Assembly: GCA_947631865.1 (NCBI GenBank)
Contig: CANRNF010000003.1
Span: forward strand, 16,595 to 80,594
Reading direction: 5' to 3'
Source: an uncultured Oscillospiraceae bacterium
GTDB taxonomy: Bacteria; Bacillota; Clostridia; Oscillospirales; Oscillospiraceae
Length of the DNA: 64,000 nucleotides
Part shown: piece after piece, positions 9,116 to 46,656 of the stretch
Position numbering within the stretch: the stretch's first letter is position 1
How the letters are laid out: every line of letters starts with the position of its first letter
The notes under the pieces: model-generated
Told to the model about the DNA's origin: nothing
Seen by the model: the letters and a program-made list of their open reading frames with translations, nothing else
The model's database searches: none
Position numbers and translations under genes: made by a program

Positions 9116-9152
9116 CGGCCCTTTCGCCGCGCTGGATCGTATAAAGAGACAG
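9116..9152 (+). promoter_or_regulatory. Conserved bipartite promoter-like element P1 (CGGCCCTTT-N13-CGTATAAAGAGACAG)
   Basis: One of five copies with an invariant 13-nt spacer and an upstream A/T tract. It lies 68 nt upstream of the A1 start. Confidence 0.55.
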
Positions 9153-9205
9153 CACGGCAGTTCGGAGCCGTAAAATAAACACCAATTTTTAAGGAGGAAA
9201 AAACC

Positions 9206-9388
9206 ATGTCCGAAGAGAAGAAGAACGAAGTCCAGGAGCAGAACGAGCTGAACGAGAACGATCTGGACGGCGTGTCCGGCGGCGCCTTTGCCGAGGTAAA
9301 CCCGCTGAGCATGGGCCGTAATGTCCTCAGGACCACTGAAGACGGAAGGGCTGACGGCCCCATGACCAGCCGCTCCAACATTCGGTGA
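9206..9388 (+). CDS. A1: GG-leader peptide, Cys-free 34-aa core; candidate signalling peptide
   Basis: MSEEKKNEVQEQNELNENDLDGVSGG|AFAEV... SD AAGGAGG lies upstream. The gene sits directly downstream of the kinase. Confidence 0.7.
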   Translation: MSEEKKNEVQEQNELNENDLDGVSGGAFAEVNPLSMGRNVLRTTEDGRADGPMTSRSNIR

Positions 9389-9422
9389 AAAACAGCAGCC
9401 GGAGGGGTCCGACGGGAGGAAC

Positions 9423-9629
9423 ATGATGAACGTAAACACCATGGACACCCGGCTCAGGGCGCTTTTTGACCGCCAGAGGAAGGTCAGCGATCCGCGCATG
9501 GCGCGGCTCATCGGGGAGACAGAGACCCGGTGGGGCGCGCCCATCGCGGACGACGACCTGGGATCGGTGGCGGCGGCGGGCGACCCGGACGCAGGCCAGA
9601 GAAAAACACCCTGGGATGAGCGCAGATGA
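9423..9629 (+). CDS. Hypothetical 68-aa protein translationally coupled to the sigma factor gene
   Basis: SD GGGAGGA lies upstream. Its stop overlaps the sigma start (ATGA). No family was recognised. Confidence 0.5.
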   Translation: MMNVNTMDTRLRALFDRQRKVSDPRMARLIGETETRWGAPIADDDLGSVAAAGDPDAGQRKTPWDERR

Positions 9630-10099
9630 TGGACGGGGAAGAGCTGTACCTGCGGTACAGGGATAAGGTCCTGGCCTATATCCGCGCCAGGGTGGAAAAC
9701 GAACAGGACGCGGAGGACCTTTGCTCCACCGTCTTTATGAAGGCGTGGGCAAACCTGCCGGATTATGACGGGCAGAGGTCCTCTGTCTCCACATGGCTTT
9801 TTTCCATCGCCCACAACGCGATCATCGACTTTTACCGCGGCCGGCGGCCGGCGGCCGAATTGGACGAGACGGTGCCGGCCCCGGAGCGGGACCCGGAACT
9901 GGAGGCCCTGGCGGAGGCGCTGGAGGCCCTGCCGGAGCGGGAGCGGGACGTGATCGTGCTGTACTACTACCACGGACTGACCCTGAAGGAGATCGCGGTC
10001 CACATGCGCCTTGCCTACAGCACGGTGAAGCTCTGCCACAGCCGGACGCTGGAGGCGCTCAGACAGATGATGGGCGGAACAGAGGCCCTGAAGATATGA
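9626..10099 (+). CDS. Sigma-70 family, ECF-like RNA polymerase sigma factor
   Basis: 157 aa containing only region 2 (DAEDLCSTVFMKAW, STWLFSIAHNAIIDFYR) and region 4 (LPERERDVIVLYYYHGLTLKEIA). Confidence 0.85.
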   Translation: MMDGEELYLRYRDKVLAYIRARVENEQDAEDLCSTVFMKAWANLPDYDGQRSSVSTWLFSIAHNAIIDFYRGRRPAAELDETVPAPERDPELEALAEALEALPERERDVIVLYYYHGLTLKEIAVHMRLAYSTVKLCHSRTLEALRQMMGGTEALKI

Positions 10100-10132
10100 C
10101 CGGAAACGACAGTTTTTGAAGGAGATACGACC

Positions 10133-10429
10133 ATGGAGCAGAAAGTGATCGAGGAATTCCTGGAAAAGGCGAAGCAGGCAAAGAGCCCGGAGGAGATCAA
10201 GGCCGCCGCGAGGGCGTGCGGTCTGGAGCTGACGGCGGAGAAGCTCACGAAGCTGGACGGCGCGCTTTGTGGAGCGAAGGGCGAGCTGTCCGACGAGGAC
10301 CTGGACGGCGTCGCCGGCGGGAAGCAGAACCTGGAGTATGGCACCCCTGAGTTTTGGCACTATGTAGACGAACAGATCCAAAAATACGGACCGAGTGTCG
10401 TCCCCGCTTTGATGGCGACCTATATGTAA
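10133..10429 (+). CDS. N1: Nif11-like-leader GG precursor, Cys-free core
   Basis: MEQKVIEEFLEKAKQAKSPEEIKAAARACGLELTAEKL...ELSDEDLDGVAGG|KQNLEYG... matches the Nif11 leader architecture. Confidence 0.8.
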   Translation: MEQKVIEEFLEKAKQAKSPEEIKAAARACGLELTAEKLTKLDGALCGAKGELSDEDLDGVAGGKQNLEYGTPEFWHYVDEQIQKYGPSVVPALMATYM

Positions 10430-10482
10430 TAAACGCAGAAGACGCTAGCGGGGGACATACATAGTAAAGGGGAGGCACTATC

Positions 10483-10716
10483 GTGGACGACAACGAGAAC
10501 AAAAAGAGCGGTGAAGAGCTGGCCGACGAGGCCCTGGACAAGGTGGCCGGCGGCGGGTTAATGCGTAAGCCATGCTGCTTTATATGCGGTCGGGACGACA
10601 TTCCCCTGGGAGAGGGTTCCTACCGTGCGGCGGATTATGGAAGATCCATTTCCTATATCTGCGAGGCTTGCTTAAAATCCAACTACGGCCCGGAATGGAC
10701 ATGGCGCAAACTTTGA
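10483..10716 (+). CDS. A2: short-GG-leader precursor, zinc-ribbon-like core (class i)
   Basis: GTG start after AAAGGGGAGG. Leader (M)DDNENKKSGEELADEALDKVAGG; core has CFIC...YICEAC. Confidence 0.8.
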   Translation: MDDNENKKSGEELADEALDKVAGGGLMRKPCCFICGRDDIPLGEGSYRAADYGRSISYICEACLKSNYGPEWTWRKL

Positions 10717-10749
10717 TGGCCGGGTGACCCGGCAGAGAGGAGAATTATC

Positions 10750-11055
10750 ATGGAGCAGAAGAAGATCGAGGAATTCGTGGAAAAAGCGAAGCAGGCCAAG
10801 AGCCCGGAGGAAGTGGAGGCCGCAGCGAAGGCGTGCGGGGTGGAGCTGACGGCGGAGAAGCTCGCGAAGCTGGAGAAATCCCTCCGCGGAAAGAAGGGCG
10901 AGCTGTCCGACGAGGAGCTGGCCGGCGTTTCCGGCGGGGCGGTGGATCCGAGCACGACCGATTGGCTCGCTGAGCAGCTCGTTGAGCAGTTCAAAGAGCA
11001 GATCAAAGACCTCGACCCGGAATTCTTGGAATTGCTGAAGCTGGCTTTGTCCTGA
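10750..11055 (+). CDS. N2: Nif11-like-leader GG precursor, Cys-free amphipathic core
   Basis: Its leader is nearly identical to N1. ...ELSDEELAGVSGG|AVDPSTTDWLAEQLVEQFKEQI... Confidence 0.8.
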   Translation: MEQKKIEEFVEKAKQAKSPEEVEAAAKACGVELTAEKLAKLEKSLRGKKGELSDEELAGVSGGAVDPSTTDWLAEQLVEQFKEQIKDLDPEFLELLKLALS

Positions 11056-11078
11056 AAGACGGGAACAGGAGAAACGAC

Positions 11079-11345
11079 ATGGACAACAGCGAGAACAAAA
11101 AGAGCTACGAGGAACTGGCCGACGAGGCATTGGACAAGGTGGCCGGCGGTGGCTGGGAATGGCTATGGGGAGACTCATCGCCCAGAGTGACCCCATGCGG
11201 CATTTGCCGCGGAACTGAGGAGCAAGCTATATTATATACGATCGATTTCGGCAACGGCGGCAGCTCCGGGATGTACTTGTGTTCCAAGTGCCTCGCGGAC
11301 GAAAGGAAAAAATATAAAGTGACCGAAGGCTGGGGCGGGAAATGA
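11079..11345 (+). CDS. A3: short-GG-leader precursor, zinc-ribbon-like core (class i)
   Basis: Leader MDNSENKKSYEELADEALDKVAGG; core has PCGIC...YLCSKC. Confidence 0.82.
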   Translation: MDNSENKKSYEELADEALDKVAGGGWEWLWGDSSPRVTPCGICRGTEEQAILYTIDFGNGGSSGMYLCSKCLADERKKYKVTEGWGGK

Positions 11346-11399
11346 CGTGCGCGGAATTGTCCGAAGGCTGCCATTGCTGACGAAAGGAAAGGAAGAGCT

Positions 11400-11618
11400 A
11401 TGAATCAAGACGAAAATAAAAAAAGCGTTGAAGAACTGGCGGACGAGGCCTTGGACGCGATAACGGGCGGGAAGAGGGATGAATACGTACGCCCCACGGT
11501 CACCTGTCCCAAGTGCCATCAGCAAAAAGAGAGGCTGGTGACATGCCGTGACCCGAAGGATCCGACAAAGCGTGAGTCCATGTGCCCCGACTGTGCCCGC
11601 GATCTCGGGTATGTGTGA
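11400..11618 (+). CDS. A4: short-GG-leader precursor, zinc-ribbon-like core (class i)
   Basis: Leader MNQDENKKSVEELADEALDAITGG; core has CPKC...MCPDC. Confidence 0.8.
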   Translation: MNQDENKKSVEELADEALDAITGGKRDEYVRPTVTCPKCHQQKERLVTCRDPKDPTKRESMCPDCARDLGYV

Positions 11619-11650
11619 TGACCGTCCCGGACGGAGAAAGGAGAGACATC

Positions 11651-11863
11651 ATGGAAAACAGCGAGAACAAAAAGACCCCGGAAGAGCTGGCCGACGAGGC
11701 GTTGGACAAGGTGGCCGGGGGGGAGTACGGTGGGGATTTTGTTGTACTCAACTGCAGATCCTGCCGCCACCATAACAATGACTGTCCCTACGGAACTCCG
11801 CTGGGTGCCGTGTTAGAATTGAAACCATCGTATTGGACACTGTGCCCAAGCAAGGAGGCTTGA
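11651..11863 (+). CDS. A5: short-GG-leader precursor, class ii Cys core
   Basis: Leader MENSENKKTPEELADEALDKVAGG; core has NCRSC...DCPY...LCP. The internal ATG is preferred over the track start 11582 because of the SD and the leader alignment. Confidence 0.78.
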   Translation: MENSENKKTPEELADEALDKVAGGEYGGDFVVLNCRSCRHHNNDCPYGTPLGAVLELKPSYWTLCPSKEA

Positions 11864-11866
11864 CCG

Positions 11867-12112
11867 ATGAACGACAGCGAGAACAAAAAGAGCGGTGAGG
11901 CCTTGGCCGACGAGGCGCTGGAAAATGTGTCCGGGGGGAGCGACGATGTTTTTTTTACAATTATAAGTTTTAGGAACAATTTTAAAAGCAGAAACAATTG
12001 CACGTCCTGCAACAGCTATTACAGGAGCAACTGTCTGCTAAAGCTTACTGTTGAAGGACTCTACGATAAGTTTAGCGGGGACAATAACGCGATGTGCCCT
12101 TACAAGACGTAA
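11867..12112 (+). CDS. A6: short-GG-leader precursor, class ii Cys core
   Basis: Leader MNDSENKKSGEALADEALENVSGG; core has NNCTSC...NC...AMCPYKT. The core DNA is locally AT-rich. Confidence 0.78.
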   Translation: MNDSENKKSGEALADEALENVSGGSDDVFFTIISFRNNFKSRNNCTSCNSYYRSNCLLKLTVEGLYDKFSGDNNAMCPYKT

Positions 12113-12138
12113 GACAGGGCCGAAAGGAGAAAACGGAC

Positions 12139-12378
12139 ATGAGCGACAGCGAGAACAAAAAGACCCCGGAGGCCCTGGCCGACGAGGCGCTGGACGCGGT
12201 GGCCGGCGGGAGCAGCAGATTTGACGCGCTCCTTAAGGGGGGAGCCTGCGCGGACTGCCCACGGATCGACGAGAGCGTTCATATGTATGATGTGATATTC
12301 GACGGCAGCAGCATGTCCATCTATCTCTGTCCCGATTGCGTTGCCAAACGCCGCCAAAGAGGACAAGTGGTTCGGTAA
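12139..12378 (+). CDS. A7: short-GG-leader precursor, zinc-ribbon-like core (class i)
   Basis: Leader MSDSENKKTPEALADEALDAVAGG; core has CADC...YLCPDC. The start at ATG 12139 is chosen by SD and leader alignment. Confidence 0.8.
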   Translation: MSDSENKKTPEALADEALDAVAGGSSRFDALLKGGACADCPRIDESVHMYDVIFDGSSMSIYLCPDCVAKRRQRGQVVR

Positions 12379-12406
12379 GCGCGCAGACAGCGGAAAGGAG
12401 AGCGAC

Positions 12407-12682
12407 ATGAACGATAGCGAGAATAAAAAGACCCCGGAGGAGCTGGCCGACGAGGCGCTGGAGAAGGTGTCCGGAGGCGGGCTCTCCTGGGGCGGCCTTG
12501 TACTACCGGACCCGCTGGAGGACATTTTCGCTGAGAAGTGCCATAAGTGCGGGAAAAAGCCCGGTCGGCAGTATACCCTGTACTATCCGACGCCGTTCGG
12601 CCCCAGGATCGAGACCTGCTGCGACGACTGCGCCGAACTGTTCAGACAAACGTATGGAGGCGAAGCGATCCCCGTCGACTGA
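12407..12682 (+). CDS. A8: short-GG-leader precursor, zinc-ribbon-like core (class i)
   Basis: Leader MNDSENKKTPEELADEALEKVSGG; core has CHKC...CCDDC. Confidence 0.8.
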   Translation: MNDSENKKTPEELADEALEKVSGGGLSWGGLVLPDPLEDIFAEKCHKCGKKPGRQYTLYYPTPFGPRIETCCDDCAELFRQTYGGEAIPVD

Positions 12683-12709
12683 CGGCAGACAGCGGAAAGG
12701 AGAACGACT

Positions 12710-12961
12710 ATGAATGATAACGAGAACAACAAGAGCATGGAGGCTCTGCCCGACGAGGCCCTGGACAAGGTGACCGGCGGTGATGGATTGACATATCTGC
12801 CTTTCAAGATCCCATGCCACAGGTGCCCCAGATGTGACGAGACCGTGATGTATTATACGATCAAAGACGAAAGCGGTGGGTACGGGATGAACCTGTGTCC
12901 CGACTGCGTCGCGGAACTCAGGAAAGATCATACGGTGTACGAAGGCTTTCATCTATTCTGA
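12710..12961 (+). CDS. A9: short-GG-leader precursor, zinc-ribbon-like core (class i)
   Basis: Leader MNDNENNKSMEALPDEALDKVTGG; core has CHRCPRC...NLCPDC. Confidence 0.82.
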   Translation: MNDNENNKSMEALPDEALDKVTGGDGLTYLPFKIPCHRCPRCDETVMYYTIKDESGGYGMNLCPDCVAELRKDHTVYEGFHLF

Positions 12962-12981
12962 CGCCGGGAAAGAGGACGACA

Positions 12982-13172
12982 GTGAATAACGAACGCAAAC
13001 GTGTACCCCCCGAAGCGCTGGACGACGATGCCATGGACAGGGTCGCCGGGGGAGGATCACTCTCAGACGGACAGGGGTTCTACCACTGTAAAAACTGCGG
13101 TGCGCAGTTCACAAAAACCAGATCGTGTATGGCCGCCGTCTCAGCTGCCCCAGCTGCGGGGCATGGCTGTGA
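12982..13172 (+). pseudogene. A10: frameshifted GG-leader precursor (class i); single-A deficit in A5 run at 13113-13117
   Basis: GTG start, (V)NNERKRVPPEALDDDAMDRVAGG...FYHCKNCGAQFTK. With one more A the frame reads NQIVYGRRLSCPSCGAWL-stop at 13172, parallel to A11. As written the frame runs on into A11. Confidence 0.65.
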
Positions 13173-13202
13173 TATAAATGATTATATAAGGGGAGAACGA
13201 AC

Positions 13203-13391
13203 ATGGATAACAACGAGGACAAAAAGAGCGGTGAAGAGCTGGTGGACGAGGCGCTGGACAGGGTCGCCGGCGGGAGAATATACCAAGACAGACACGGGAT
13301 CCTCTACTGCGATAGCTGCGGTGCGTCTTTCCTGGCAGAACACCTCCAGACTATGCGCCGTCTCCACTGCCCCTACTGCGGGGCGGAATAA
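13203..13391 (+). CDS. A11: short-GG-leader precursor, zinc-ribbon-like core (class i)
   Basis: Leader MDNNEDKKSGEELVDEALDRVAGG; core has YCDSC...HCPYC. Confidence 0.8.
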   Translation: MDNNEDKKSGEELVDEALDRVAGGRIYQDRHGILYCDSCGASFLAEHLQTMRRLHCPYCGAE

Positions 13392-13424
13392 CATTCACAA
13401 ACTGCTGTGGTAAGGAGATATGAC

Positions 13425-14201
13425 ATGAAGCGGAGCGCGGGATACTTTATGGCGCTGGCCCTGACGGCGGCGCTCATCCTGGGCGCGGCCACGCCGGCGC
13501 TGGCGGCGGAGAATTTTTCCGACGAGATGAAATTCGACGACGGGGCCGATATCAGCCCCGCTGACGGCGCGGACAGCGTGGAGCGGGCGGGGGACCACGA
13601 GGACAGCCCCTACTTCCGCCACCCGGATTTTTATAACATGACCTCCACCGACAGTCTGACCATCCTGACGAACTTCAAGACCATACAGCAGTCCAGCGAG
13701 TGGAGCTGCGGCGTGGCCTGCGTGCTGATGACGCTGGAGTGGTACGGCCTGCGGGGGGACTACGACGAGGAGAGCCTGGCTCAGCTGCGGCCCCAGGGGA
13801 TGGAGCCCGTGGCTACCACCATGAGCCAGATGGTGGGCCTTTTTGATTCAGTAGGCGGCTTTGATTGCTACTCCGCCATCGACGCGGGGGAGGACGCGGC
13901 GGATATCTTCACTTTTGATTACATCCAGGAGACCCTGGCGAACGGCGACCCCATCATCATCGGCTGGAACGACTGGGGCGCCCACTGGCAGATCATCATC
14001 GGCTACGACGACATGGGCACCGAGGTGACCCAGGACGACGTGATCATCGTGGCCGACCCCTATGACACCACCGACCATGACCAGGACGGCTACGGCATCT
14101 ATCCCGCCGAGCGGTTCCTGTATAACTTTACATTCTACGATTACTTTGACGAGGGCGAGCTGAACGACATGTGCTTCCTCGTCGCCAGACCCGCGGCCTG
14201 A
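13425..14201 (+). CDS. Secreted papain-fold, C39-like cysteine peptidase
   Basis: Signal peptide MKRSAGYFMALALTAALILGAATPALA. The order Q..SSEWSCGVACVLM ... GAHWQIIIGYDD ... ADPYD matches the Gln/Cys/His/Asp layout of C39-type peptidases. SD AAGGAG lies 7 nt upstream of ATG 13425. Confidence 0.6.
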   Translation: MKRSAGYFMALALTAALILGAATPALAAENFSDEMKFDDGADISPADGADSVERAGDHEDSPYFRHPDFYNMTSTDSLTILTNFKTIQQSSEWSCGVACVLMTLEWYGLRGDYDEESLAQLRPQGMEPVATTMSQMVGLFDSVGGFDCYSAIDAGEDAADIFTFDYIQETLANGDPIIIGWNDWGAHWQIIIGYDDMGTEVTQDDVIIVADPYDTTDHDQDGYGIYPAERFLYNFTFYDYFDEGELNDMCFLVARPAA

Positions 14202-17413: not shown

Positions 17414-17462
17414 ACACATATCCCGCCCCATGCCGGGCGGACAGCGAAAGGGAGGTACATTT

Positions 17463-22859: not shown

Positions 22860-23120
22860 ATGAATAGCAGCAAAAACGAAAAGAATTTTGAAGAGCTGTC
22901 CGACGAAGCCCTTGACAAGGTGGCCGGAGGCTGGGACGAGGACGAGGTATTGGAGGCTGGGCCATGGGTAGCGAAGGCTCCCCTGACCGATGATGAAAGA
23001 TACGGCGATCACGAGTGCGGCAACTGCCACAGAAGGCATATCAACGCCTCGAACGGCATGTTGAGAGACGACAACGTATGGTTTTGCAACGGCTGCTGGT
23101 ACACGATCAGCGGTTGGTAA
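22860..23120 (+). CDS. A13: short-GG-leader precursor, zinc-ribbon-like core (class i)
   Basis: Leader MNSSKNEKNFEELSDEALDKVAGG; core has ECGNC...FCNGC. Confidence 0.8.
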   Translation: MNSSKNEKNFEELSDEALDKVAGGWDEDEVLEAGPWVAKAPLTDDERYGDHECGNCHRRHINASNGMLRDDNVWFCNGCWYTISGW

Positions 23121-23138
23121 AGATGAAGGGAGGCAGAG

Positions 23139-23405
23139 ATGATAGACAACAAGGACAAAAGGGAGCTGTCCGACGAGGCCATGGATGAGGTGGTGGGCGG
23201 TTCGATCCGACTCCCCACTTCTGTGACGGCCGCTTATTTGAGCGATCCGTCTCAACCGCATACCGTGTGCGACAGATGCCACGGTACATTTGCCGCGGGC
23301 GTGGTCACAGAGCACGCGGTGAGCTCCGGCTATCTTTGGCTCTGCCCGGCTTGCGTCCAGGCTTACAAGGACGCCGGTCTGTACTTTCACAAAGCCGATA
23401 TATAA
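23139..23405 (+). CDS. A14: short-GG-leader precursor, zinc-ribbon-like core (class i)
   Basis: Leader MIDNKDKRELSDEAMDEVVGG; core has VCDRC...LCPAC. Confidence 0.78.
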   Translation: MIDNKDKRELSDEAMDEVVGGSIRLPTSVTAAYLSDPSQPHTVCDRCHGTFAAGVVTEHAVSSGYLWLCPACVQAYKDAGLYFHKADI

Positions 23406-23433
23406 GAAGGAGCAGCGGTAAAAGGAGAAGGCT

Positions 23434-32159: not shown

Positions 32160-32180
32160 ACACAGGAAAACTTACATCGG

Positions 32181-32216: not shown

Positions 32217-32239
32217 GCCCGGGCCGGGAAGGATTACGT

Positions 32240-32308
32240 AAAAATCAGGTTTGATTACGAAAACGTCAGAGCCTCCTTGTTGAGGAGGGCATTTTGTTAT
32301 GATAAAAT
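32240..32308 (+). promoter_or_regulatory. LytTR-type direct-repeat box R4 plus -10 upstream of the partner-switching/export operon
   Basis: AAAAATCAG at 32240-32248 and AAAACGTCAG at 32260-32269. TAAAAT at 32303-32308 lies 33 nt after the second repeat. Confidence 0.55.
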
Positions 32309-32542: not shown

Positions 32543-32839
32543 ATGACCATCACGAAAAACCAGAACGGGACCCATCTTGATCTGGCCCTGGAGGGCCGGC
32601 TGGATACCACCACCGCGCCCCAGCTGGAGGCGGAGCTGAAGCAGAGCGTGAACGGCGTCACGGAGCTGGCGCTGGATTTCAGCAAGCTGGAGTATCTGTC
32701 CTCGGCCGGCCTGCGCGTGCTTTTGAGCGCCCAGAAGGTCATGAACCGGCAGGGGTCCATGGTGATCAAGAACGTGAACGAGACCATCATGGAGATCTTT
32801 GAGGTCACCGGCTTCTCGGATATTTTGACCGTCGAGTAA
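32543..32839 (+). CDS. STAS-domain anti-sigma-factor antagonist (SpoIIAA/RsbV-like)
   Basis: 98 aa with the LEYLSSAGLRVLL phosphorylation-loop motif. Confidence 0.85.
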   Translation: MTITKNQNGTHLDLALEGRLDTTTAPQLEAELKQSVNGVTELALDFSKLEYLSSAGLRVLLSAQKVMNRQGSMVIKNVNETIMEIFEVTGFSDILTVE

Positions 32840-32851
32840 GAACGAGCAAGC

Positions 32852-34600: not shown

Positions 34601-34610
34601 CAGACGCGAT

Positions 34611-38293: not shown

Positions 38294-38306
38294 AAGGGGA
38301 GACACC

Positions 38307-39488
38307 ATGAGCTTAGCAGAGGGGAAGTTTGAAAACGGCGTTCTGACGGCATCTCTCATCGGACACATCGACTCCGGCAACGCCGCCCAGGCGGAGCGGG
38401 AGCTGAACGAACTGCGCCAAAAGACCCCGGAAGCGGCGGCCGTGGTGCTGGACTTCGAGCGGCTCCAGTACATATCCAGCGCGGGCCTGCGGATCATTCT
38501 GCGGCTGCGGAAGGACCGGCCTGAGCTGAAGATCGTGAACGTGTCGCCCGAGGTATATGAGATCCTGGACATGACCGGCTTCACAGAGATGATGCCGGTA
38601 GAGAAGGCCTACCGGCGGCTGAGCGTGGATGGCTGTGAGGTCATCGGTCAGGGCGCCAACGGCCAGGTCTATCGCCTGGACCCGGATACCATCATCAAGG
38701 TGTACCTGAATCCGGACAGCCTGCCGGACATCCACCGGGAGCGGGAACTGGCCCGCCGGGCCTTCGTGCTGGGCATCCCTACCGCCATCCCCTACGACGT
38801 TGTAAAGGTGGGGGAGGGCTATGGCTCCGTGTTCGAGCTTCTGAACGCCAAGAGCCTGGCCAAGCTCATCATCGCCGAGCCGGAGAAGCTGGACGAGTAC
38901 GTGCAGGTCTATGTGGACCTGCTGAAAAAGATCCACAGCACCGAGGTGCAGCCCGGAGACATGCCGGATATGAAGGCGGTGGTCCTTGGCTGGACGGATT
39001 ATCTGAAGGATCACCTGCCGCCGGCGCAGTATGAAAAGCTCCACGGGCTGATCGAGGCGGTGCCGGAGGACCACCACATGCTCCACGGCGACTACCATAT
39101 AAAAAACGTCATGGTCCAGAACGGCGAGGTGCTGCTCATCGACATGGACACCCTGTGCATGGGTCACCCCGTGTTTGAGTTCGCGTCCATATTCCTGGCC
39201 TACCAGGGCTTCGGGGAGCTGGACCACAGTGAGACGGAGCGGTTTTTGGGCGTGAGCCATGAGACGGGCGCGGCCATCTGGAACAAGACCCTCCGGCTCT
39301 ACTTTGGCACAGAGGACCAGGCCGAGCTGGACGCCGTCGCCGACAAGGCCAAGGTCGTTGGCTACACCCGGCTCCTGCGGCGGACCCTCCGCCGGAAGAG
39401 CGGCACCGCCGACGGTCAGGCCATCGTCGCCAACTGCAAGGCCCGGCTGGCGGAGCTTTTGGAGCGGGTCGATGCGCTGACATTCTGA
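38307..39488 (+). CDS. STAS domain fused to an aminoglycoside-phosphotransferase/choline-kinase-like (APH fold) kinase domain
   Basis: The N-terminus has LQYISSAGLRIILRL (STAS). The C-terminus has HGDYHIKNVMV...LIDMD (HxDxxxxN...D kinase motifs). Confidence 0.7.
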   Translation: MSLAEGKFENGVLTASLIGHIDSGNAAQAERELNELRQKTPEAAAVVLDFERLQYISSAGLRIILRLRKDRPELKIVNVSPEVYEILDMTGFTEMMPVEKAYRRLSVDGCEVIGQGANGQVYRLDPDTIIKVYLNPDSLPDIHRERELARRAFVLGIPTAIPYDVVKVGEGYGSVFELLNAKSLAKLIIAEPEKLDEYVQVYVDLLKKIHSTEVQPGDMPDMKAVVLGWTDYLKDHLPPAQYEKLHGLIEAVPEDHHMLHGDYHIKNVMVQNGEVLLIDMDTLCMGHPVFEFASIFLAYQGFGELDHSETERFLGVSHETGAAIWNKTLRLYFGTEDQAELDAVADKAKVVGYTRLLRRTLRRKSGTADGQAIVANCKARLAELLERVDALTF

Positions 39489-39527
39489 GCATAACACTAA
39501 TAACAACACTGCAGGGGGAGAACTGAT

Positions 39528-40004
39528 ATGGACAACGGACTGTTTCGTCAAAAGAGCCTGGACAAGGTGTCCAGCCCAGAGCAGATGAACGACTATATCC
39601 GGGTGACCAGTCCCGGGGTGTGGCTGATCCTGGCCGCGGTGATCGCGATCCTGGCCGGACTGCTCATCTGGTCCGTGCTGGGCCGGCTGGAGACCACGGT
39701 GCCGGCGGCGGCGGTGGCCGGGCCGGACGGAGCGGCGGTGTGCTACATCGATGAGGGAGACCTCTCCTCCGTGCACGCGGGCCAGACGGTGCATATCGCA
39801 GGGATCGATTATGCTCTGTCCGAGGTGGCGGCCAAGCCTGTGGTCGTAGACGAGAGTTTCGACGCCTACGCCCTGCACGTGGGCGGCCTGGAGGCCGGCC
39901 AGTGGGTGTACCCTGCGGAGCTGGACGGGACGCTGGACGAGGGGATCTACGAGGCGAAGGTCGTGGTGGACAGCGTTTCTCCCATCTCGTTCCTGCTGAA
40001 TTGA
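39528..40004 (+). CDS. Short HlyD-like/NHLM-type bacteriocin secretion accessory protein
   Basis: The N-terminus FRQKSLDKVSSPEQMNDYIRVTSPGVWLIL plus a single TM resembles the start of NHLM-system HlyD homologues. It is only 158 aa. Confidence 0.55.
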   Translation: MDNGLFRQKSLDKVSSPEQMNDYIRVTSPGVWLILAAVIAILAGLLIWSVLGRLETTVPAAAVAGPDGAAVCYIDEGDLSSVHAGQTVHIAGIDYALSEVAAKPVVVDESFDAYALHVGGLEAGQWVYPAELDGTLDEGIYEAKVVVDSVSPISFLLN

Positions 40005-40011
40005 GGCGCCC

Positions 40012-42186
40012 ATGAAGAAGCAAGAGATCAAAAAGCCCGTTACCAAGGGCGTGGCCAAAGTGCCGGTGGTCATGCAGATGGAGGCGCTGGAGTGCGGCGC
40101 CGCCAGCCTGACCATGGTGCTGGCCTATTATGAGAAATGGATACCGCTGGAGCAGGTGCGCGCCGACTGCGGCGTGAGCCGGGACGGCTCCAACGCCAAA
40201 AACGTGCTGAAGGCCGCGAGGAGCTACGGCCTCACGGCGAAGGCATACCGCTTTGAGCCGGATGACCTGCGGGAGCGGGGAACGTTCCCCTGCATCATCC
40301 ACTGGAACTTCAACCACTTCGTGGTGCTGGACGGGTTCAAGGGCGGCAAAGCCATATTGAACGACCCGGCCCGGGGCGTGACCCCGGTGAGCATGGAGAC
40401 CTTTGACGAGTCCTTCACCGGCATCTGCATGATGTTCGAGCCGGGGGAGGGGTTCCAGCCCGGCGGCAGCCCCAAGAGCATGCTGGGCTACGCGAAAAAG
40501 CGGCTCACCGGCGCCGGGGCGGCGCTGGTGTTCGTGACGCTGACCACGCTCATCAGCTCCCTTTTCGGCGTGATCAGCCCCGCCTTCTCCCGGATATTTA
40601 TGGACCGTCTGCTCACGAGGCAGAACCCGGAGTGGCTGTGGCCGTTTTTGGCGGCCCTGGCCGGCGTGAGCATTTTGCAGCTCGTCGTGGCATGGGTCCA
40701 GGCGGTTTGGTCCCTTCGCATCACAGGCAAGCTGGCTTCCGTGGGTTCGGCAACGTTCCTGTGGAAGGTGCTGCACATGCCCATGGAGTTTTTCTCCCAG
40801 CGCATGGCCGGCGACATCCAGCAGCGGCAGACCACCAACGCCAACATCGCCCAGGAACTGGTGAATACCATAGGGCCGCTGGTGCTGAACGCCATCATGA
40901 TGGTGTTCTACCTGGTGGTCATGCTCCGGTATTCCTGGATATTGACCCTGGTAGGACTGGCCTCCGTGGTCATCAACCTGGGCGTGAGCCGCCTTATATC
41001 CAAAAAGCGTGTGAACATCATGCGCGTGCAGATGCGCGACGCGGGCAAGCTCGCCTCCTCCACCATGGCGGCCATCGAAATGATCGAGACCATCAAGGCC
41101 GCCGGCGCGGAGAACGGCTACTTCGAGCGCTGGGCGGGCTACCAGGCCAGCGTGAACACCCAGCAGATGCGCTTTACCAAGACAGACGCGTATCTCGGCC
41201 TTATCCCCTCCATCGTCAGCGTCATCAGCGACATGGCCATCCTGTTCCTGGGCGTGCTGTTCGTCATGCAGGGCAGCTTCACCATCGGTATGGTCATGGC
41301 CTTCCAGGGCTTCCTCATGAGCTTCACCGCCCCGGCCACTACCCTCATCGGCGCGGGCCAGACCATCCAGGAGATGCGTACGGAGATGGAGCGCGTGGAG
41401 GACGTGATGGAGTACCCCGAGGACAGCAATATGGTCGAGGGGGAGGAGCAGGAAAGCTACGACAAGCTCTCCGGCGCTCTGGAGATGAAGCACGTCACCT
41501 TCGGCTACTCCAAGCTGGCGGAACCCCTCATCGAGGACTTCAATCTGAGCCTGAAGCCGGGCAGCCGGGTGGCCTTCGTGGGAGGCTCCGGCTGCGGCAA
41601 GAGCACCCTTTCCAAGCTCATATCGGGCCTTTACCAGCCCTGGAGCGGGGAGATCCTCTTCGACGGCAAGCCCATCCGGGAGATCGACCGGAGCGTGTTC
41701 ACCGGCTCACTCGCGGTGGTGGATCAGGACGTCATCCTCTTTGAGGACACCATTGCTGAAAATATCAAGATGTGGGATAAGTCCATCGAGGACTTCGAGA
41801 TGATCATGGCGGCCCGGGACGCTGGTATCCACAGCGACATCGTCCAGCGTGAGGGCGGCTACAACCACAAGCTGACAGAGGGCGGCCGTGACTTCTCCGG
41901 CGGCCAGCGCCAGCGCATGGAGATCGCCCGTGTCCTGGCCCAGGACCCCACCATCATCATCCTGGACGAGGCCACCTCCGCCCTGGACGCCAAGACGGAG
42001 TACGAAGTGGTCAAGTCCATCAAGGACCGGGGCGTCACCTGTATCGTGGTGGCCCACCGGCTCTCCACCATCCGGGACTGCGACGAGATCATCGTCCTGG
42101 ACCAGGGCAAAGTGGTGGAGCGGGGGACCCACGACGAGCTATACGCCAAGGGCGGATATTACACCCGCCTGGTGTCCAATGACTGA
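40012..42186 (+). CDS. Peptidase-containing ABC transporter (PCAT): C39 peptidase + permease + ATPase
   Basis: The C39 domain shows QMEALECGAASL, NHFVVL and NDP. It has 6 TM segments, Walker A GGSGCGKST, signature FSGGQRQR and Walker B IILDEATSALD. Confidence 0.9.
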   Translation: MKKQEIKKPVTKGVAKVPVVMQMEALECGAASLTMVLAYYEKWIPLEQVRADCGVSRDGSNAKNVLKAARSYGLTAKAYRFEPDDLRERGTFPCIIHWNFNHFVVLDGFKGGKAILNDPARGVTPVSMETFDESFTGICMMFEPGEGFQPGGSPKSMLGYAKKRLTGAGAALVFVTLTTLISSLFGVISPAFSRIFMDRLLTRQNPEWLWPFLAALAGVSILQLVVAWVQAVWSLRITGKLASVGSATFLWKVLHMPMEFFSQRMAGDIQQRQTTNANIAQELVNTIGPLVLNAIMMVFYLVVMLRYSWILTLVGLASVVINLGVSRLISKKRVNIMRVQMRDAGKLASSTMAAIEMIETIKAAGAENGYFERWAGYQASVNTQQMRFTKTDAYLGLIPSIVSVISDMAILFLGVLFVMQGSFTIGMVMAFQGFLMSFTAPATTLIGAGQTIQEMRTEMERVEDVMEYPEDSNMVEGEEQESYDKLSGALEMKHVTFGYSKLAEPLIEDFNLSLKPGSRVAFVGGSGCGKSTLSKLISGLYQPWSGEILFDGKPIREIDRSVFTGSLAVVDQDVILFEDTIAENIKMWDKSIEDFEMIMAARDAGIHSDIVQREGGYNHKLTEGGRDFSGGQRQRMEIARVLAQDPTIIILDEATSALDAKTEYEVVKSIKDRGVTCIVVAHRLSTIRDCDEIIVLDQGKVVERGTHDELYAKGGYYTRLVSND

Positions 42187-42200
42187 GGGGGTGCGCTGCA

Positions 42201-44399
42201 ATGGGATGGTTTGACGAACAAATAAGAGAACGCCGGCGCCAGGACCAGCAGGCATTCGAGGAGAGTTTCGCCTCCATCGCGGGGGCCGTGCTGGGCCGCC
42301 GGGTCATGCCCGGCGACGACAGCCAGCAGGCCAGAAGCGCCATGGAGGAGATCCTGCGCTACTACCACGCCAAACCCCGGGAGATGCCCGACACGGTGAA
42401 GGACTTCAACGAACAGCTGGAGTTCATGCTGCGGCCCTACGGCATCATGCGCCGGACGGTGACGCTGGAGAAGGGGTGGTACAAGGACGCCATCGGGGCC
42501 ATGCTGACCCGCCGGAAGGAGGACGGCGCCCTCACGGCCATGATCCCCACGGGCCTCACCGGCTACACCTACGCCGACCCGGCCACAGGCAAGCGGCAGC
42601 GGGTGAATGCCCGGACAGAGGAGCTTTTTGAAAGAGAGGCCATCGCCTTCTATAAGCCATTCCCCCAGGGGAAGATCGGCATCCCCGGCCTCATGCGGTA
42701 TATAGCCGCCTGCACCTCTTGGGCGGACCGGATCTTCTTCGCCCTGTCCGCGCTGGCGGTGTCTCTGGTGGGACTGCTGCTGCCCCGGCTCAATAACCTC
42801 CTGTTCTCCCGGGTCACGGACAGCGGGAGCGTGGTGGTTCTGGCGGCGCTCATCTCCTTCATGCTGCTGGTGACCGTGAGTTCCAGGATCCTGGAGGTAG
42901 TGAAGCAGCTGCTCACCACACGGATGAACACAAAGGTCTCCGTGTCGGTGGAGGCCGCGGGTATGATGCGGCTTTTCTCCCTGCCTGCCAACTTCTTTAA
43001 ACAGTACAGCACCGGCGAGATCGCCACCCGCTGCATGAATATCAAGCAGCTGGCCTCCTTGCTGGTGTCCTCGGTGGCCGCGGTGGGGCTGACCAGCCTG
43101 TTCTCCCTGCTGCAGATCACCCAGATCTTTGCTTATGCACCGGCGCTGGTGGTGCCGGCGCTGGCCATCGTGGCCGTGACGATGGTGTTCTCGGTGCTCA
43201 CGTCCATCCGCCAGAAGGGCATCACCCAGCAGATGATGGAGCAGAGCGCCAAGGAGACCGGCCTTACCTACGCCCTCGTCAGCGGCGTGCAGAAGGTGAA
43301 GCTCTCCGGCGCGGAGAAGCGGGCCTTCGCCAAGTGGAGCGAGCAGTACGCCAAGGTGGCGCGGCTGCAATATGACCCGCCCATGTTCTTGAAGGTGAAC
43401 AGCGTCATCAGTACGGCCATCACCCTCGTCGGCACACTGGTGATGTACGCTGTGGCGGTGGAGAGCGGCGTGTCCGTTTCGGAATACTACGCCTTCAACT
43501 CCTCCTACGCCATGATCAGCGGCGCTTTTATGTCCCTGGCCGGCATCGCCTCCATGGTGGGCCAGATCATCCCCATCCTCAATATGGCCAAGCCCATACT
43601 GGACACGGAGCCGGAGATCAGCTCCGACAAGCAGGTGGTGGAGCGCATCAGCGGCGGCATCGAACTCAATAACGTCTCCTTCCGCTACTCGGAGGATATG
43701 CCCAACGTGGTGGACGACATGAGCCTCAAGATCCGGCCGGGCCAGTACGTGGCCATCGTGGGCCGGACCGGCTGCGGCAAGAGCACGCTCATGCGGCTGC
43801 TGCTTGGTTTCGAGACGCCCCAGAAGGGCGCCATCTACTACGACGGCCGGGACATGGCCGGTCTGGACCTGAAGAGCCTGCGCCGGCGCATGGGTGTGGT
43901 GATGCAGGACGGGAAGCTCTTCCAGGGCGATATCTACTCCAACATCACTATCTCCGCGCCCTGGCTCACCATGGACGACGCCTGGGAGGCGGCGGAAATG
44001 GCGGGCATCGCCGAGGACATCCGGCGCATGCCCATGGGGATGCACACCCTGATCTCCGAGGGAAGCGGCGGCATCTCCGGCGGCCAGCGCCAGCGGCTGC
44101 TCATCGCCCGGGCCATCGCTCCCAAGCCCCGCATCCTCATGTTCGACGAGGCCACCTCGGCCCTGGACAATATCACCCAGCGGGTGGTGTCCGAGTCTTT
44201 GGATCAGCTGAAATGCACCCGTATCGTCATAGCCCACCGGCTCAGCACCATCCGCCACTGCGACCGGATCATCGTCCTGGAGGGCGGCCATATCGTGGAG
44301 GACGGCACATACGAGGAGCTCATCGCCAAACACGGCTTCTTCGCCGAGCTGGTGTCCCGGCAGCGCTTGGACACGGATACATCCTCGGACGGCAAATAA
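42201..44399 (+). CDS. Second bacteriocin-export ABC permease/ATPase lacking the peptidase domain (NHLP/NHLM-type partner)
   Basis: 732 aa with a non-peptidase N-terminal domain, a TMD, GRTGCGKST, ISGGQRQR and LMFDEATSALD. Confidence 0.85.
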   Translation: MGWFDEQIRERRRQDQQAFEESFASIAGAVLGRRVMPGDDSQQARSAMEEILRYYHAKPREMPDTVKDFNEQLEFMLRPYGIMRRTVTLEKGWYKDAIGAMLTRRKEDGALTAMIPTGLTGYTYADPATGKRQRVNARTEELFEREAIAFYKPFPQGKIGIPGLMRYIAACTSWADRIFFALSALAVSLVGLLLPRLNNLLFSRVTDSGSVVVLAALISFMLLVTVSSRILEVVKQLLTTRMNTKVSVSVEAAGMMRLFSLPANFFKQYSTGEIATRCMNIKQLASLLVSSVAAVGLTSLFSLLQITQIFAYAPALVVPALAIVAVTMVFSVLTSIRQKGITQQMMEQSAKETGLTYALVSGVQKVKLSGAEKRAFAKWSEQYAKVARLQYDPPMFLKVNSVISTAITLVGTLVMYAVAVESGVSVSEYYAFNSSYAMISGAFMSLAGIASMVGQIIPILNMAKPILDTEPEISSDKQVVERISGGIELNNVSFRYSEDMPNVVDDMSLKIRPGQYVAIVGRTGCGKSTLMRLLLGFETPQKGAIYYDGRDMAGLDLKSLRRRMGVVMQDGKLFQGDIYSNITISAPWLTMDDAWEAAEMAGIAEDIRRMPMGMHTLISEGSGGISGGQRQRLLIARAIAPKPRILMFDEATSALDNITQRVVSESLDQLKCTRIVIAHRLSTIRHCDRIIVLEGGHIVEDGTYEELIAKHGFFAELVSRQRLDTDTSSDGK

Positions 44400-44477: not shown

Positions 44478-44708
44478 ATGAACGACAGCGGAAACAAAAG
44501 GATCGATGAAGAGCTGGCCGAGGAGACGCTGGACGCAGTGACGGGTGGTATCGGCATCAGCGTCACGCCGGAGGACGGCGTCGTGGGCATCGACTGTAAC
44601 TGCGGAACGATCATAAGTGTGCCGAAGGGCGCCACCAGCGTGCAATGCCCCGGGTGCGGCAGGAAATGGCGCATCAACGGCAAAGTGGTGACCCCGGCTA
44701 TCCTCTGA
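44478..44708 (+). CDS. A19: short-GG-leader precursor, class iii core (CxCG...CPxC)
   Basis: Leader MNDSGNKRIDEELAEETLDAVTGG; core has DCNCGT...QCPGCGRKW. Confidence 0.8.
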   Translation: MNDSGNKRIDEELAEETLDAVTGGIGISVTPEDGVVGIDCNCGTIISVPKGATSVQCPGCGRKWRINGKVVTPAIL

Positions 44709-44751
44709 CGGCTCTTGCCGGCGGATGACAGGCCCTGAAAGGAGAACAGCC

Positions 44752-44976
44752 ATGGAGAACAAAGGGAATAGGAAGAACGTTGACGAGCTGGCCGACGAGG
44801 CCCTGGACGCCGTGGCGGGGGGTCTCCCCGACATCGTCACCACCGCTGAAAATGGAGTGATCACCTGTACCTGCGGCACGGTCATAAACGTGAAGGGCGT
44901 CAGTGACGTGCGTTGCCCTCAGTGCAAGCAGCGTTGGCATCGATTTTTGGGACAGGCTGGCTGGGGCGTTTTTTAA
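44752..44976 (+). CDS. A20: short-GG-leader precursor, class iii core
   Basis: Leader MENKGNRKNVDELADEALDAVAGG; core has TCTCGT...RCPQCKQRW. The internal ATG 44752 follows GAAAGGAGAA. Confidence 0.8.
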   Translation: MENKGNRKNVDELADEALDAVAGGLPDIVTTAENGVITCTCGTVINVKGVSDVRCPQCKQRWHRFLGQAGWGVF

Positions 44977-45023
44977 AAGGAATGTGCATGTGGCGCTGAT
45001 AGCTGCAAAGGAGGAAAAGAGCC

Positions 45024-45242
45024 ATGAGCGAAGATAAGAAAATAAGCGAAGAAAAGGCCCTGCCCGACGAGACTCTGGAGGGCGTCGCGGGGGGCGCCGT
45101 GGCACCCTCGCTGCAGGCTGCCAAATGCTCTGTCTGCCACGAGATCGTGATGGTACAGGCTGCCTGTTTGCCGTCGTTTGGCAGGTGCCCTAAGTGTCAG
45201 AAGGAAGCGTACTTCAGCGAGATAGGCTATAACTTCAGCTGA
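45024..45242 (+). CDS. A21: GG-leader precursor, class iii-like core
   Basis: MSEDKKISEEKALPDETLEGVAGG|AVAPSLQAAKCSVCHE...GRCPKCQKE. Confidence 0.75.
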   Translation: MSEDKKISEEKALPDETLEGVAGGAVAPSLQAAKCSVCHEIVMVQAACLPSFGRCPKCQKEAYFSEIGYNFS

Positions 45243-45304
45243 CAGACGGATGACCCCGCCCGGGAAGGGCAAATCATATTTTAATAGTAAGTGACGGAAA
45301 GCAT

Positions 45305-46603
45305 ATGGAAACGACAAAATTGGCGCCGGTGAGTCTCGCCATGTTTTACGGGGCGAACCGGGACTTTGCAAACGCGTTCAGCGTCCGGGTGACGCTGAAA
45401 AACCCCATCGAGCCGGAGGCGCTGCGCCGGGCCGTGGACAAGGCCATGGAGCGGTACCCCTATTTTGCCGTGCGCCTGACGGCGCAGGGCGAGGCGCTGG
45501 TGCTGGAGGACAACCCCCTGCCGGTGACCATCGTGAAGGGACCGGAGCTGGCGAAGCTGAATACGGCGGCGTCCAACTACCACCTGGTGGGTGTGAGCTA
45601 CGAGCGCACCAGCGTCATCTTCGGGGCGTTCCACGCCCTGACGGACGGGGCCGGCGCCTTCCACTGGATCAAGACGACGCTCTATTATTACCTCTGCGAG
45701 ACCGAGGGACGGACCCTTGACCCGGCGGGCGTGCGCCTGGCGGGAGAAGAGATCCCCGAGGGGGAGATGGAGGACCCGTTCAATACGGAGATACCGGAGA
45801 CGGAGGAGCCCATGCTGCCCAAGTGGAGCGGCGCCTTCTCCATCACGGACCACACCCCCGTGAGCAGGCAGCGCTGCTGGCATATCCGCATCGGGGAGAC
45901 ATCCTTCATGAAGTACACCCGCACCCAGGACGGCAGCCCCGCCACCATCACCTCGGCCTTCATGGCCAAGGCGTTGCACACCCTGTACCCGGACATGACA
46001 GAGCCGGTGGTGTGCGGCATGGCCCACAACATCCGGGACGTGATCCGTAAGCCCCTGGCCCACCAGAGCATGGTCAAGCTCATAGAGCTCTCCTACCCGC
46101 CCCGGCTGAAGGGGTCGGACATCGAGCGGCTGGCTATCTGCAGCCGCGGCATGGTGATGCTCCAGAGCCAGCCGGAGACGGTGTGGGACACGGTAAAGAA
46201 GCAGCTTGCCCTGGAAAAGGAGCTGGAGGGGCTGACGCTGCAGGAGAAGTTCGACCTGCTGCGGCCCATCGTCACCGGCGCCCGGACAGGCATCGGCAAT
46301 CTGCCCGCCTCCGCCCCCGTGAGCTTCAAGGTCAGCTATGTTGGCCGGACGGACTGGGGCAGTATGGCCAATATGATCGAATCCGTGCACTGCTCCGTGA
46401 CCACGGACGGCAGCGGCATCTGCATCGAGATCAACACCTGCAACGGGTACTTCGACTACTGCTTCATGCAGGAGTTCGAGGACGACAAGTACGTGAACAC
46501 CTTCGTGGACCTGCTGGAGCAGGAGGGCATCTACTGCACGGTCAGCGGGCCCTACGACGTACATGTGCCCAAGATGCGCCTGCCGGACGATCCGGAGGAA
46601 TAA
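45305..46603 (+). CDS. Free-standing condensation/CAT-superfamily-like acyltransferase (HxxxDG)
   Basis: 432 aa. GAFHALTDGAGAFHW resembles the HHxxxDG active-site motif. Size and layout fit a stand-alone C-domain/PapA5-like enzyme. The assignment is tentative. Confidence 0.45.
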   Translation: METTKLAPVSLAMFYGANRDFANAFSVRVTLKNPIEPEALRRAVDKAMERYPYFAVRLTAQGEALVLEDNPLPVTIVKGPELAKLNTAASNYHLVGVSYERTSVIFGAFHALTDGAGAFHWIKTTLYYYLCETEGRTLDPAGVRLAGEEIPEGEMEDPFNTEIPETEEPMLPKWSGAFSITDHTPVSRQRCWHIRIGETSFMKYTRTQDGSPATITSAFMAKALHTLYPDMTEPVVCGMAHNIRDVIRKPLAHQSMVKLIELSYPPRLKGSDIERLAICSRGMVMLQSQPETVWDTVKKQLALEKELEGLTLQEKFDLLRPIVTGARTGIGNLPASAPVSFKVSYVGRTDWGSMANMIESVHCSVTTDGSGICIEINTCNGYFDYCFMQEFEDDKYVNTFVDLLEQEGIYCTVSGPYDVHVPKMRLPDDPEE

Positions 46604-46619
46604 ACGTTTTTTCGCCGGC

Positions 46620-46656
46620 CGGCCTTTTTGGCCGGCCGGAACGTATATAGGGGCAG
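46620..46656 (+). promoter_or_regulatory. Conserved bipartite promoter-like element P5 (variant) upstream of idi
   Basis: CGGCCTTTT-N13-CGTATATAGGGGCAG, 35 nt upstream of GTG 46677. The left half also forms a perfect palindrome CCGGCCGGCC-TTTTT-GGCCGGCCGG. Confidence 0.45.

Follow-up and report, generated by a model that had tools for sequence, protein, structure and literature searches.

The DNA analysed here, a stretch of 64,000 nucleotides (nt) of contig CANRNF010000003.1 in the GenBank assembly GCA_947631865.1 (hereafter the window), comes from an uncultured Oscillospiraceae bacterium and has a G+C content of 61.8%. It encodes a small extracytoplasmic function (ECF) sigma factor, four arrays of genes for short peptides with double-glycine leaders, a LytTR two-component system, a STAS-to-exporter operon and the isomerase gene idi (Table 1). 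Among these genes lie five occurrences of a two-box element, CGGCC(C/T)TTT-N13-CGTATA(A/T)AG, which we call P1 to P5. All are on the forward strand, all are intergenic and all have the same orientation as the genes downstream. An earlier note on this DNA had described the elements as preceding every peptide array and idi, and had proposed that they are promoters of the sigma factor encoded at the locus, the first of them driving the sigma factor's own operon. The distribution is as the note had it: in a six-frame translation, every double-glycine leader in the window lies in the four arrays, directly 3′ of P1–P4, and idi follows P5.

Table 1. Features of the locus by position in the window (aa, amino acids); the last row concerns the distant locus L053.
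Feature	Position	Strand	Description
LytTR-type direct repeats	4556–4592		Same design as at 6773; before M13 peptidase gene 1
LytTR-type direct repeats	6773–6809	+	16 nt-GGTTT-16 nt, 21-nt register; 5′ of the regulator gene
LytTR response regulator	6976–7707	+	
GHKL histidine kinase	7704–9089	+	
A/T tract AAAAAATTTTTT	9093–9108	+	Before P1; candidate UP element
P1	9116–9152	+	CGGCCCTTT-N13-CGTATAAAG-AGACAG; 55 bits; predicted −35/−10, autoregulatory copy; operon of double-glycine peptide, p67, sigma factor and first peptide array
Double-glycine-leader peptide, 60 aa	9206–9388	+	No cysteines; first gene after P1
p67, 68 aa	9423–9629	+	Gene overlaps the sigma start codon; candidate regulator or anti-sigma factor
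ECF sigma factor, 157 aa	9626–10099	+	Contains only sigma regions 2 and 4; proposed to read the motif
Peptide array 1	10133–13413	+	About 14 genes; Nif11-like leaders and MNDSENKK..ELADEALDKVAGG leaders with CxxC...CxxC cores
P2	22801–22837	+	53.5 bits; ATG 22860; three peptides and a 420-aa Sel1 protein
Peptide array 2	22860–23700	+	Three genes
P3	25062–25098	+	CGTATATAG as second box; 50.5 bits; ATG 25121; three Cys-rich peptides and a Nif11-like peptide
Peptide array 3	25121–26233	+	Three genes and one Nif11-like gene
Terminator-like hairpin	near 26263–26279		P3 unit
LytTR-type direct repeats	30002–30038		Same design; before M13 peptidase gene 2
LytTR-type direct repeats	32232–32268		Same design; before the STAS-to-exporter operon
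STAS-to-exporter operon	32543–44399	+	STAS, MatE/HATPase_c_2, GH3, SpoIIE(PP2C)/HATPase_c_2, STAS/APH, HlyD-like, two NHLP-type C39 ABC exporter genes
P4	44418–44454	+	53.9 bits; ATG 44478; three peptides and a 432-aa protein
Peptide array 4	44478–45242	+	Three genes, zinc-ribbon-like cores
432-aa protein	45305–46603		Between array 4 and the idi promoter; no family match
P5	46620–46656	+	CGGCCTTTT-N13-CGTATATAG; 48.1 bits; GTG 46677 (idi)
idi, type 1 isopentenyl-diphosphate isomerase	46677–47255	+	TIGR02150, 113 bits (cut-off 105.8)
L053 CGTATCAA boxes	5224, 7280, 8195		Intergenic; 5′ of a STAS gene, p67–sigma and a 1540-aa gene

A search of the window for CGGCCCTTT-N13-CGTATAWAG with up to two mismatches returned exactly the five elements, four of them perfect and one (P5) with a single mismatch; 100 dinucleotide-preserving shuffles returned none. 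The spacer between the boxes is 13 nt in all five. With a weight matrix built from all distinct sites, the five copies score 48–55 bits; elsewhere on the two strands of the 64 kb no position exceeds −2 bits, so that there is no degenerate extra copy. An A/T tract precedes every copy, with a TTT at a fixed 12 nt 5′ of GCCCTTT (columns of 1.6–2.0 bits over 14 distinct sites), and may act like an UP element; AGACAG usually stands directly 3′ of the second box and is likewise conserved. When the 31-nt pattern was run against the JGI metagenome collection, only eight matches were obtained, none of them with the A/T tract, AGACAG, or a homologue of p67 or the sigma factor beside it, and we discarded them as chance occurrences. 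Because the whole collection holds only these eight bare matches, five copies in 64 kb are far above background. The earlier description is accurate wherever it could be checked. Counted from the first base of CGTATA, the start codons lie 37, 37, 38 and 35 nt downstream at P2, P3, P4 and P5, and 68 nt downstream at P1 (position 9206), so that the 35–38 nt originally given for four of five cases applies to exactly copies 2–5. From the end of the motif to the start codon, P2–P5 leave only 26–29 nt.

Pairwise identity among the five copies is 96% and 93% in the two boxes, 58% in the spacer and about 41% in the 30-nt flanks, as would be expected under selection on the two boxes and their spacing and not after recent block copying. 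These values bear on the suggestion, to which we give hardly any weight, that the element has no promoter function and represents a terminator-like hairpin or a repeat dispersed along with duplicated peptide cassettes. P2–P4 do precede homologous peptide genes and may stem from duplication. However, mere duplication predicts boxes and spacer of equal similarity, P5 precedes idi and not a peptide gene, and P1 is conserved across species. Strong GC hairpins can be folded from P5 and from the corresponding site of the related locus L003 (−25.8 and −21.1 kcal/mol), but over the 14 distinct sites the hairpin z-scores run from +0.6 to −6.9 with most near 0, and only these two are strong. No T-run follows the sites and a terminator scan flags none of them. 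The hairpin, which the earlier note had itself raised as a competing explanation, is thus not conserved, and we reject it.

The presumed reader of the elements is encoded in the P1 operon. It is a true ECF (group 4) sigma factor, composed of Pfam domains Sigma70_r2 (residues 7–74) and Sigma70_r4/r4_2 (residues 93–147) with no region 1 or 3, and it scores 103.2 bits against the ECF superfamily model TIGR02937 (cut-off 42.9), which confirms the ECF-like identity first read from the translation. None of the equivalog models reaches its cut-off for this protein, and the closest relative of solved structure is Bacillus subtilis SigW (5wuq, E = 1.5e-13). No other sigma-like gene is present in the window. 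The region-4 recognition helix, whose DNA-contacting residues we assigned on the assumption that they follow the general pattern of ECF sigma factors, is TVKLCHSRTLEAL here and TVKTRIHRGREAL in SigW. This marked departure fits a −35 box that is itself non-standard.

The sequence CGGCCC-N16-CGTA is common to all five copies and to nine sites from orthologous loci. In P1 it takes the form CGGCCC-TTTCGCCGCGCTGGAT-CGTA-TAAAGAGACAG, a layout of 6 + 16 + CGTATA with a T-tract. The consensus of sigma-W promoters is TGAAAC-N16,17-CGTA (PMC2375139), and a sigma-W promoter used as a standard part reads TGAAAC-CTTTTGAAACGAAGCT-CGTA-TACATACAGA (PMC5829568). A T-tract right after the −35 core is a described element of ECF promoters, which have spacers of 14–17 nt (PMC5758882). 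The CGTA of the element also agrees with the CGT that is characteristic of ECF −10 boxes. ECF sigma factors commonly regulate their own genes, and conserved motifs upstream of those genes are an accepted basis for promoter prediction (PMC7826278). The present system resembles that of B. subtilis sigma-W (ECF01) in a sigma factor with regions 2 and 4 only, in the 16-nt gap, in an identical CGTATA −10 box and in the T-tract after the −35 box; the sigma-W promoter is autoregulated, and P1 likewise sits before the operon that holds the sigma gene, a position conserved in the orthologues. The two systems differ in several respects. The −35 core is CGGCCC here and TGAAAC for sigma-W; the sigma factor of the window reaches 76 bits where the SigW equivalog cut-off is 209–243; in place of an RsiW-type membrane anti-sigma factor there are a 68-aa soluble partner and partner-switching genes; and the predicted regulon consists of secreted peptides, not of envelope-stress genes. 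No AAC core is found at the proper distance in the −35 region of the five copies or of the orthologous sites, where the core is GGCCC or GCCC. GGAAC, which stands beside CGTATA in some copies, was considered as the true −35, with a −10 further 3′. We discarded this reading because L003 and L004 do not have GGAAC, the downstream −10 is not conserved and the leader would be too short.

The second box, with its TATAAA or TATATA, differs from TATAAT at only one or two positions. It could accordingly be a housekeeping −10, with the first box serving as an activator site at −35, and the partial inverted repeat CGGCC-N5-GGCCG found in some copies would suit an activator; alternatively, given that 64 kb of the genome were examined, the elements could be read by another sigma factor encoded elsewhere. 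We regard both versions as unlikely. An ECF −10 accounts better than a housekeeping one for the CG that invariably precedes TATA and for the AG that follows it, and a TG extension is absent. A scan with the sigma-70 consensus (TTGACA-N16–18-TATAAT) picks none of the five sites, at which the −35 position is GGCCCT, in line with the earlier remark that the upstream half is unlike a housekeeping −35 box. Although the boxes persist in L004, L022 and L003, none of these has the inverted repeat. Moreover, the motif always occurs together with this sigma family, 5′ of the sigma factor's own operon, even where every other neighbour differs.

This last observation comes from a comparison of related loci. 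Relatives of the sigma factor were found almost only in Oscillospiraceae assemblies from rabbit gut, and 24 loci were fetched, with sigma factors 44–97% identical to the one in the window (64–97% for the loci with sufficient upstream DNA). In every orthologous locus with sufficient upstream DNA, GCC(C/T)TTT-N13-CGTATA(A/T)(A/T)G lies 5′ of the sigma operon. The nine distinct promoters are located 47–76 nt 5′ of the first gene of the p67–sigma operon, in which the gene order is an optional double-glycine peptide, a 67-aa protein (p67) and the sigma factor; the site orthologous to P1 is kept in L001–L004, L020–L031, L037/38 and L048/49. The spacers have diverged (cgccgtgctggat, tgccgaatcgaaa, ccgcgggccggcg, tgaacgtctggga, tggccgtctcaga and others), whereas the boxes and the 13-nt spacing are unchanged. 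No further matches to the motif occur in the 542 kb of DNA that was fetched. Downstream of the promoter the loci can differ. In L004 and L022–L027 (sigma factors 64–66% identical) the same promoter, p67 and sigma factor are followed by genes for an aldo-keto reductase, a short-chain dehydrogenase, a DUF1349 protein, a flavodoxin, a nitroreductase-like protein and an epimerase; neither peptides nor exporters are encoded in these loci, and an association with peptide loci is thus not a universal property of the sigma module. A stem-loop close to where the P1 transcript is predicted to begin (9153–9172) recurs in all leaders of the sigma operon (L002, L003, L004, L020, L028 and L037). The stem varies by lineage (ACGGC..GCCGT, CACGGCC..GGCCGTG, CGGCTC..GAGCCG or CTGAGGC..GCCTCAG), it does not occur in the short leaders of P2–P5, and it may be a 5′-end stabiliser or a regulatory hairpin.

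The regulator and kinase genes directly 5′ of P1 raise a further alternative, namely that the element is bound by the LytTR response regulator encoded beside it. Sites of LytTR-type regulators typically consist of two short repeats about 12–13 nt apart, and the 9 + 13 + 9 geometry of the element is numerically similar. We consider this most improbable. The second box does not repeat the first, and the 26–29 nt between motif and start codon at P2–P5 leave no room for a downstream core promoter. The motif is also kept in L002, L004/L022, L028 and L037/38, which have the sigma gene and no adjacent two-component system, indicating that it tracks the sigma factor and not the LytTR system. Finally, the design proper to LytTR sites, imperfect direct repeats in a register of about 21 nt 5′ of a core promoter, is present at four other promoters of the window. 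This second regulatory motif, which the earlier note had missed, comprises two 16-nt GAyTwCGwAAAnGTCr repeats with GGTTT between them, followed by xTTGxx-N17-TGnTAAAAT, in which the −35 is weak. It precedes the first M13 peptidase gene, the regulator–kinase operon, the second M13 peptidase gene and the STAS-to-exporter operon; L020 and L048 have retained the repeat pair 5′ of the regulator gene. The repeats at the four promoters are probably the sites of the LytTR regulator. The two M13 peptidase genes (672 and 687 aa) belong to a segmental duplication (4682–6830 and 30096–32290); they have near-identical 3′ ends and share about 120 nt downstream, including the direct-repeat promoter.

Among more distant relatives the motif becomes GC(C/T)CTTT-N12-CGTATAAA, with a spacer of 12 nt. 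In L051/L052, from an organism of much lower G+C content, TAGCCCTTT-N12-CGTATAAAAG precedes 11 small open reading frames (ORFs), which are followed by genes for a radical SAM enzyme, p67 and the sigma factor. In L050, GCTCTTT-N12-CGTATAAAT stands before p67, and the sigma operon has a TTGACA-N17-TATTAT promoter. The sigma factor of L053 has a divergent region-4 helix, with KIRHN (AVKIRHNKAL) in place of KLxHS, and in this locus CTGCC-N16/17-CGTATCAA lies 5′ of p67–sigma and of a gene for a 1540-aa protein; a third CGTATCAA site, before a STAS gene, has no CTGCC box. The CGTATCAA boxes are possibly a variant promoter of this diverged family member, and the pairing of a changed helix with a changed −35 box is suggestive, although it is a single instance. 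Even over large distances, then, the motif goes with the sigma family.

Several points weigh against the proposal that the five elements are promoters read by the sigma factor of the locus. Another sigma factor of similar specificity could exist outside the 64 kb seen; the −35 core does not have the AAC typical of most ECF promoters; the −10 contains TATAAA or TATATA, and a housekeeping sigma factor with an activator at −35 is conceivable; the co-variation of helix and −35 box comes from one divergent locus; and the relatives have one site per locus, so that a regulon of several promoters is documented only in the window, with L053 as a possible second case through its variant motif. Even so, the real ECF sigma factor, the motif conserved at the sigma operon and the sigma-W-type layout together lend computational support to the idea of promoters with positive autoregulation that the earlier note had put forward, and we consider it highly probable that P1–P5 are read by this sigma factor.

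On this proposal, sigma region 4 would recognise CGGCCC, with the T-tract after it, as the −35 element and region 2 would recognise CGTATA as the −10 element; the A/T tract, near position −50, would act like an UP element. Transcription would begin about 6–10 nt past CGTA, inside AGAGACAG, giving leaders of about 25–30 nt before the peptide genes and idi. Transcription of the sigma gene from P1 would establish positive feedback, and P2–P5 would place three more peptide arrays, the Sel1 protein, the 432-aa protein and idi under the same sigma factor. The LytTR system, probably sensing a secreted double-glycine peptide, would activate its own operon, the M13 peptidase genes and the operon at 32543–44399. 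The Cys-free 60-aa peptide encoded first after P1, whose gene is present in some orthologous loci, is a candidate for the secreted signal. Since 27 nt separate the end of the kinase gene from P1, and the terminator scan shows no terminator-like site in this gap, read-through from the kinase gene could seed the synthesis of the sigma factor, which would then amplify itself at P1 and fire P2–P5. Together, the two motifs suggest a two-tier circuit, with quorum sensing first and the sigma factor second. Post-translational gating of the sigma factor by p67, by the STAS, PP2C and HATPase_c_2 partner-switching proteins or by both is plausible.

The streptococcal ComCDE–ComX pathway follows the same logic: a double-glycine peptide, a C39 ABC exporter and a kinase with a LytTR regulator acting on direct repeats (the early genes) lead to a small alternative sigma factor, which serves a second wave of promoters. 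The direct-repeat promoters of the window would fit the early tier of such a scheme, and we infer the cascade from the motifs. By contrast with the present system, ComX (sigma-X) reads a single extended −10 (the cin-box) and has no two-box ECF promoter before its gene. ComX does not match the Pfam sigma models (PMC7826278). A second precedent is MibX, the ECF sigma factor in the microbisporicin cluster of Microbispora corallina, for which GAACC-N15-GCTAC was found before five operons including its own and which gives feed-forward auto-induction (PMC4973701). MibX/MibW and the related PspX/PspW resemble the present case in that a pathway-specific ECF sigma factor lies within a ribosomal-peptide cluster, and MibX in that one consensus stands before five operons, the sigma factor's own among them. 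MibX differs in being actinobacterial, in having a canonical AAC-type −35 and in having an anti-sigma factor, MibW, that is bound to the membrane; the precursor operon mibA is not MibX-dependent, whereas the precursor arrays here carry the motif directly. The comparison offered in the earlier note, with the UviA/TcdR group of clostridia, stands as a functional analogy. The TcdR, UviA, BotR and TetR sigma factors of group 5 are also small alternative sigma factors for toxin or bacteriocin genes in Clostridia, and that group is characterised by an SRQ motif in region 4.2, a TTTACA −35 and GTTATA-like −10 boxes (PMC4031146). Membership does not hold: region 4.2 of the sigma factor studied here is LAYSTVKLCHSRTLEAL, with no SRQ motif, and the −35 box within CGGCCCTTT is not TTTACA. 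Sigma-W and MibX are the closer precedents.

The small protein p67 accompanies the sigma factor throughout. It adjoins an ECF sigma factor in all relatives, including four additional loci that were fetched through p67 itself, and in the orthologous loci its gene overlaps the sigma start. The 139 relatives of p67 are unnamed proteins of 57–106 aa (mostly 60–70) from Oscillospiraceae and Lachnospiraceae assemblies, and they share the invariant pattern L..LF..Q....(D)P.L..LI..T..R. Among the families of Pfam and NCBIfam, none matches p67. Its C terminus, LSD(E/D)DLxxVAAAG(D/E), is like the double-glycine leader motif, the signal for cleavage and export, of the peptides of the locus. Homology to Nif11-type leaders was considered and set aside, as a profile comparison aligned 12 columns at 15% probability, a short motif likeness in which homology is not shown. 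A single-sequence AlphaFold model of a p67–sigma fusion had a mean confidence (predicted local distance difference test, pLDDT) of 46, too low to be informative. From its position we infer that p67 is a candidate anti-sigma factor or other regulator of the sigma factor. A bolder and rather doubtful reading is that the sigma factor, the GCCCTTT-N12/13-CGTATAAA promoter and p67 form an ECF subfamily, as yet undescribed, in gut Oscillospiraceae and Lachnospiraceae that is wired to double-glycine export, with p67 as an anti-sigma factor removed or cleaved by the C39 ABC exporter. If so, p67 would constitute a FlgM-like secretion checkpoint, in which the sigma factor is freed only when the exporter works, on top of the LytTR tier and the partner-switching module. 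The 12-column motif likeness and the gene neighbourhood are what prompts it.

The STAS-to-exporter operon, whose first NHLP-type exporter subunit matches TIGR03796 with 951 bits, directly follows the sigma gene in most relatives (including L028, L029 and L048), which implies that it originally belonged to the sigma operon. About 22 kb separate it from the sigma gene in the window, a stretch that includes the duplicated M13 peptidase gene and promoter region. It appears that about 22 kb, with peptide arrays, Sel1 proteins, Fic and MatE genes, were inserted here between the sigma gene and this block.

About 22 of the precursor-like peptides (10483–13413, 22860–23700, 25121–25915 and 44478–45242) share a leader, MN(D/E)xENKK..ELADEALDxVAGG, and have highly diverse cores, mostly of the form CxxC...CxxC with weak zinc-ribbon matches. 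No NCBIfam or Pfam bacteriocin family matched them, and family searches with the Cys-rich peptides, p67, the 432-aa protein and the 60-aa peptide gave only weak zinc-ribbon matches. A 143-aa ORF at 12982–13413, perhaps a precursor gene that has undergone frameshift or fusion, begins with a normal double-glycine leader and then overruns a second leader peptide (13203–13391) encoded in a different reading frame. There is no obvious modification enzyme near the precursors except the GH3-family ligase, the 432-aa protein and idi. The 432-aa protein contains FHALTDGAG, which is like the HxxxDG of condensation and acyltransferase enzymes, and, taken with idi, this protein suggests that the peptides may be modified in an unusual way. 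Also encoded in the P1 and P2 units are a secreted C39-like peptidase (13425–14201) with a signal peptide and no ABC domain, and two Sel1-repeat proteins (17430–22781 and 23783–25045) with 38 and 10 repeats and signal-peptide-like hydrophobic N termini; these proteins could serve in processing or immunity.

Autoregulated ECF sigma factors that are encoded within a gene cluster and have a recognisable promoter are already known. What is new at this locus is the −35 core that lacks AAC, the ever-present and undescribed family of small partner proteins, the combination of a LytTR tier with partner switching, and the placing of precursor peptide arrays directly under the sigma factor in an uncultured gut lineage. 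We regard the sigma factor and the element as a credible new ECF sigma–promoter pair with variant features. If the proposal is correct, a single small sigma factor would activate its own gene, idi and the genes of about 25 secreted Cys-rich peptides, and would define a testable regulon for an uncultured gut Oscillospiraceae bacterium, with a promoter specific enough to be spotted by eye. With its unusual −35, the pair is a candidate orthogonal expression switch for Clostridia and may offer a handle for activating silent peptide loci heterologously. The locus also points to an uncharacterised family of 60–70-aa proteins that always accompany these sigma factors, and it suggests that a design of quorum sensing followed by a sigma factor may extend to bacteriocin-like loci beyond the streptococci.

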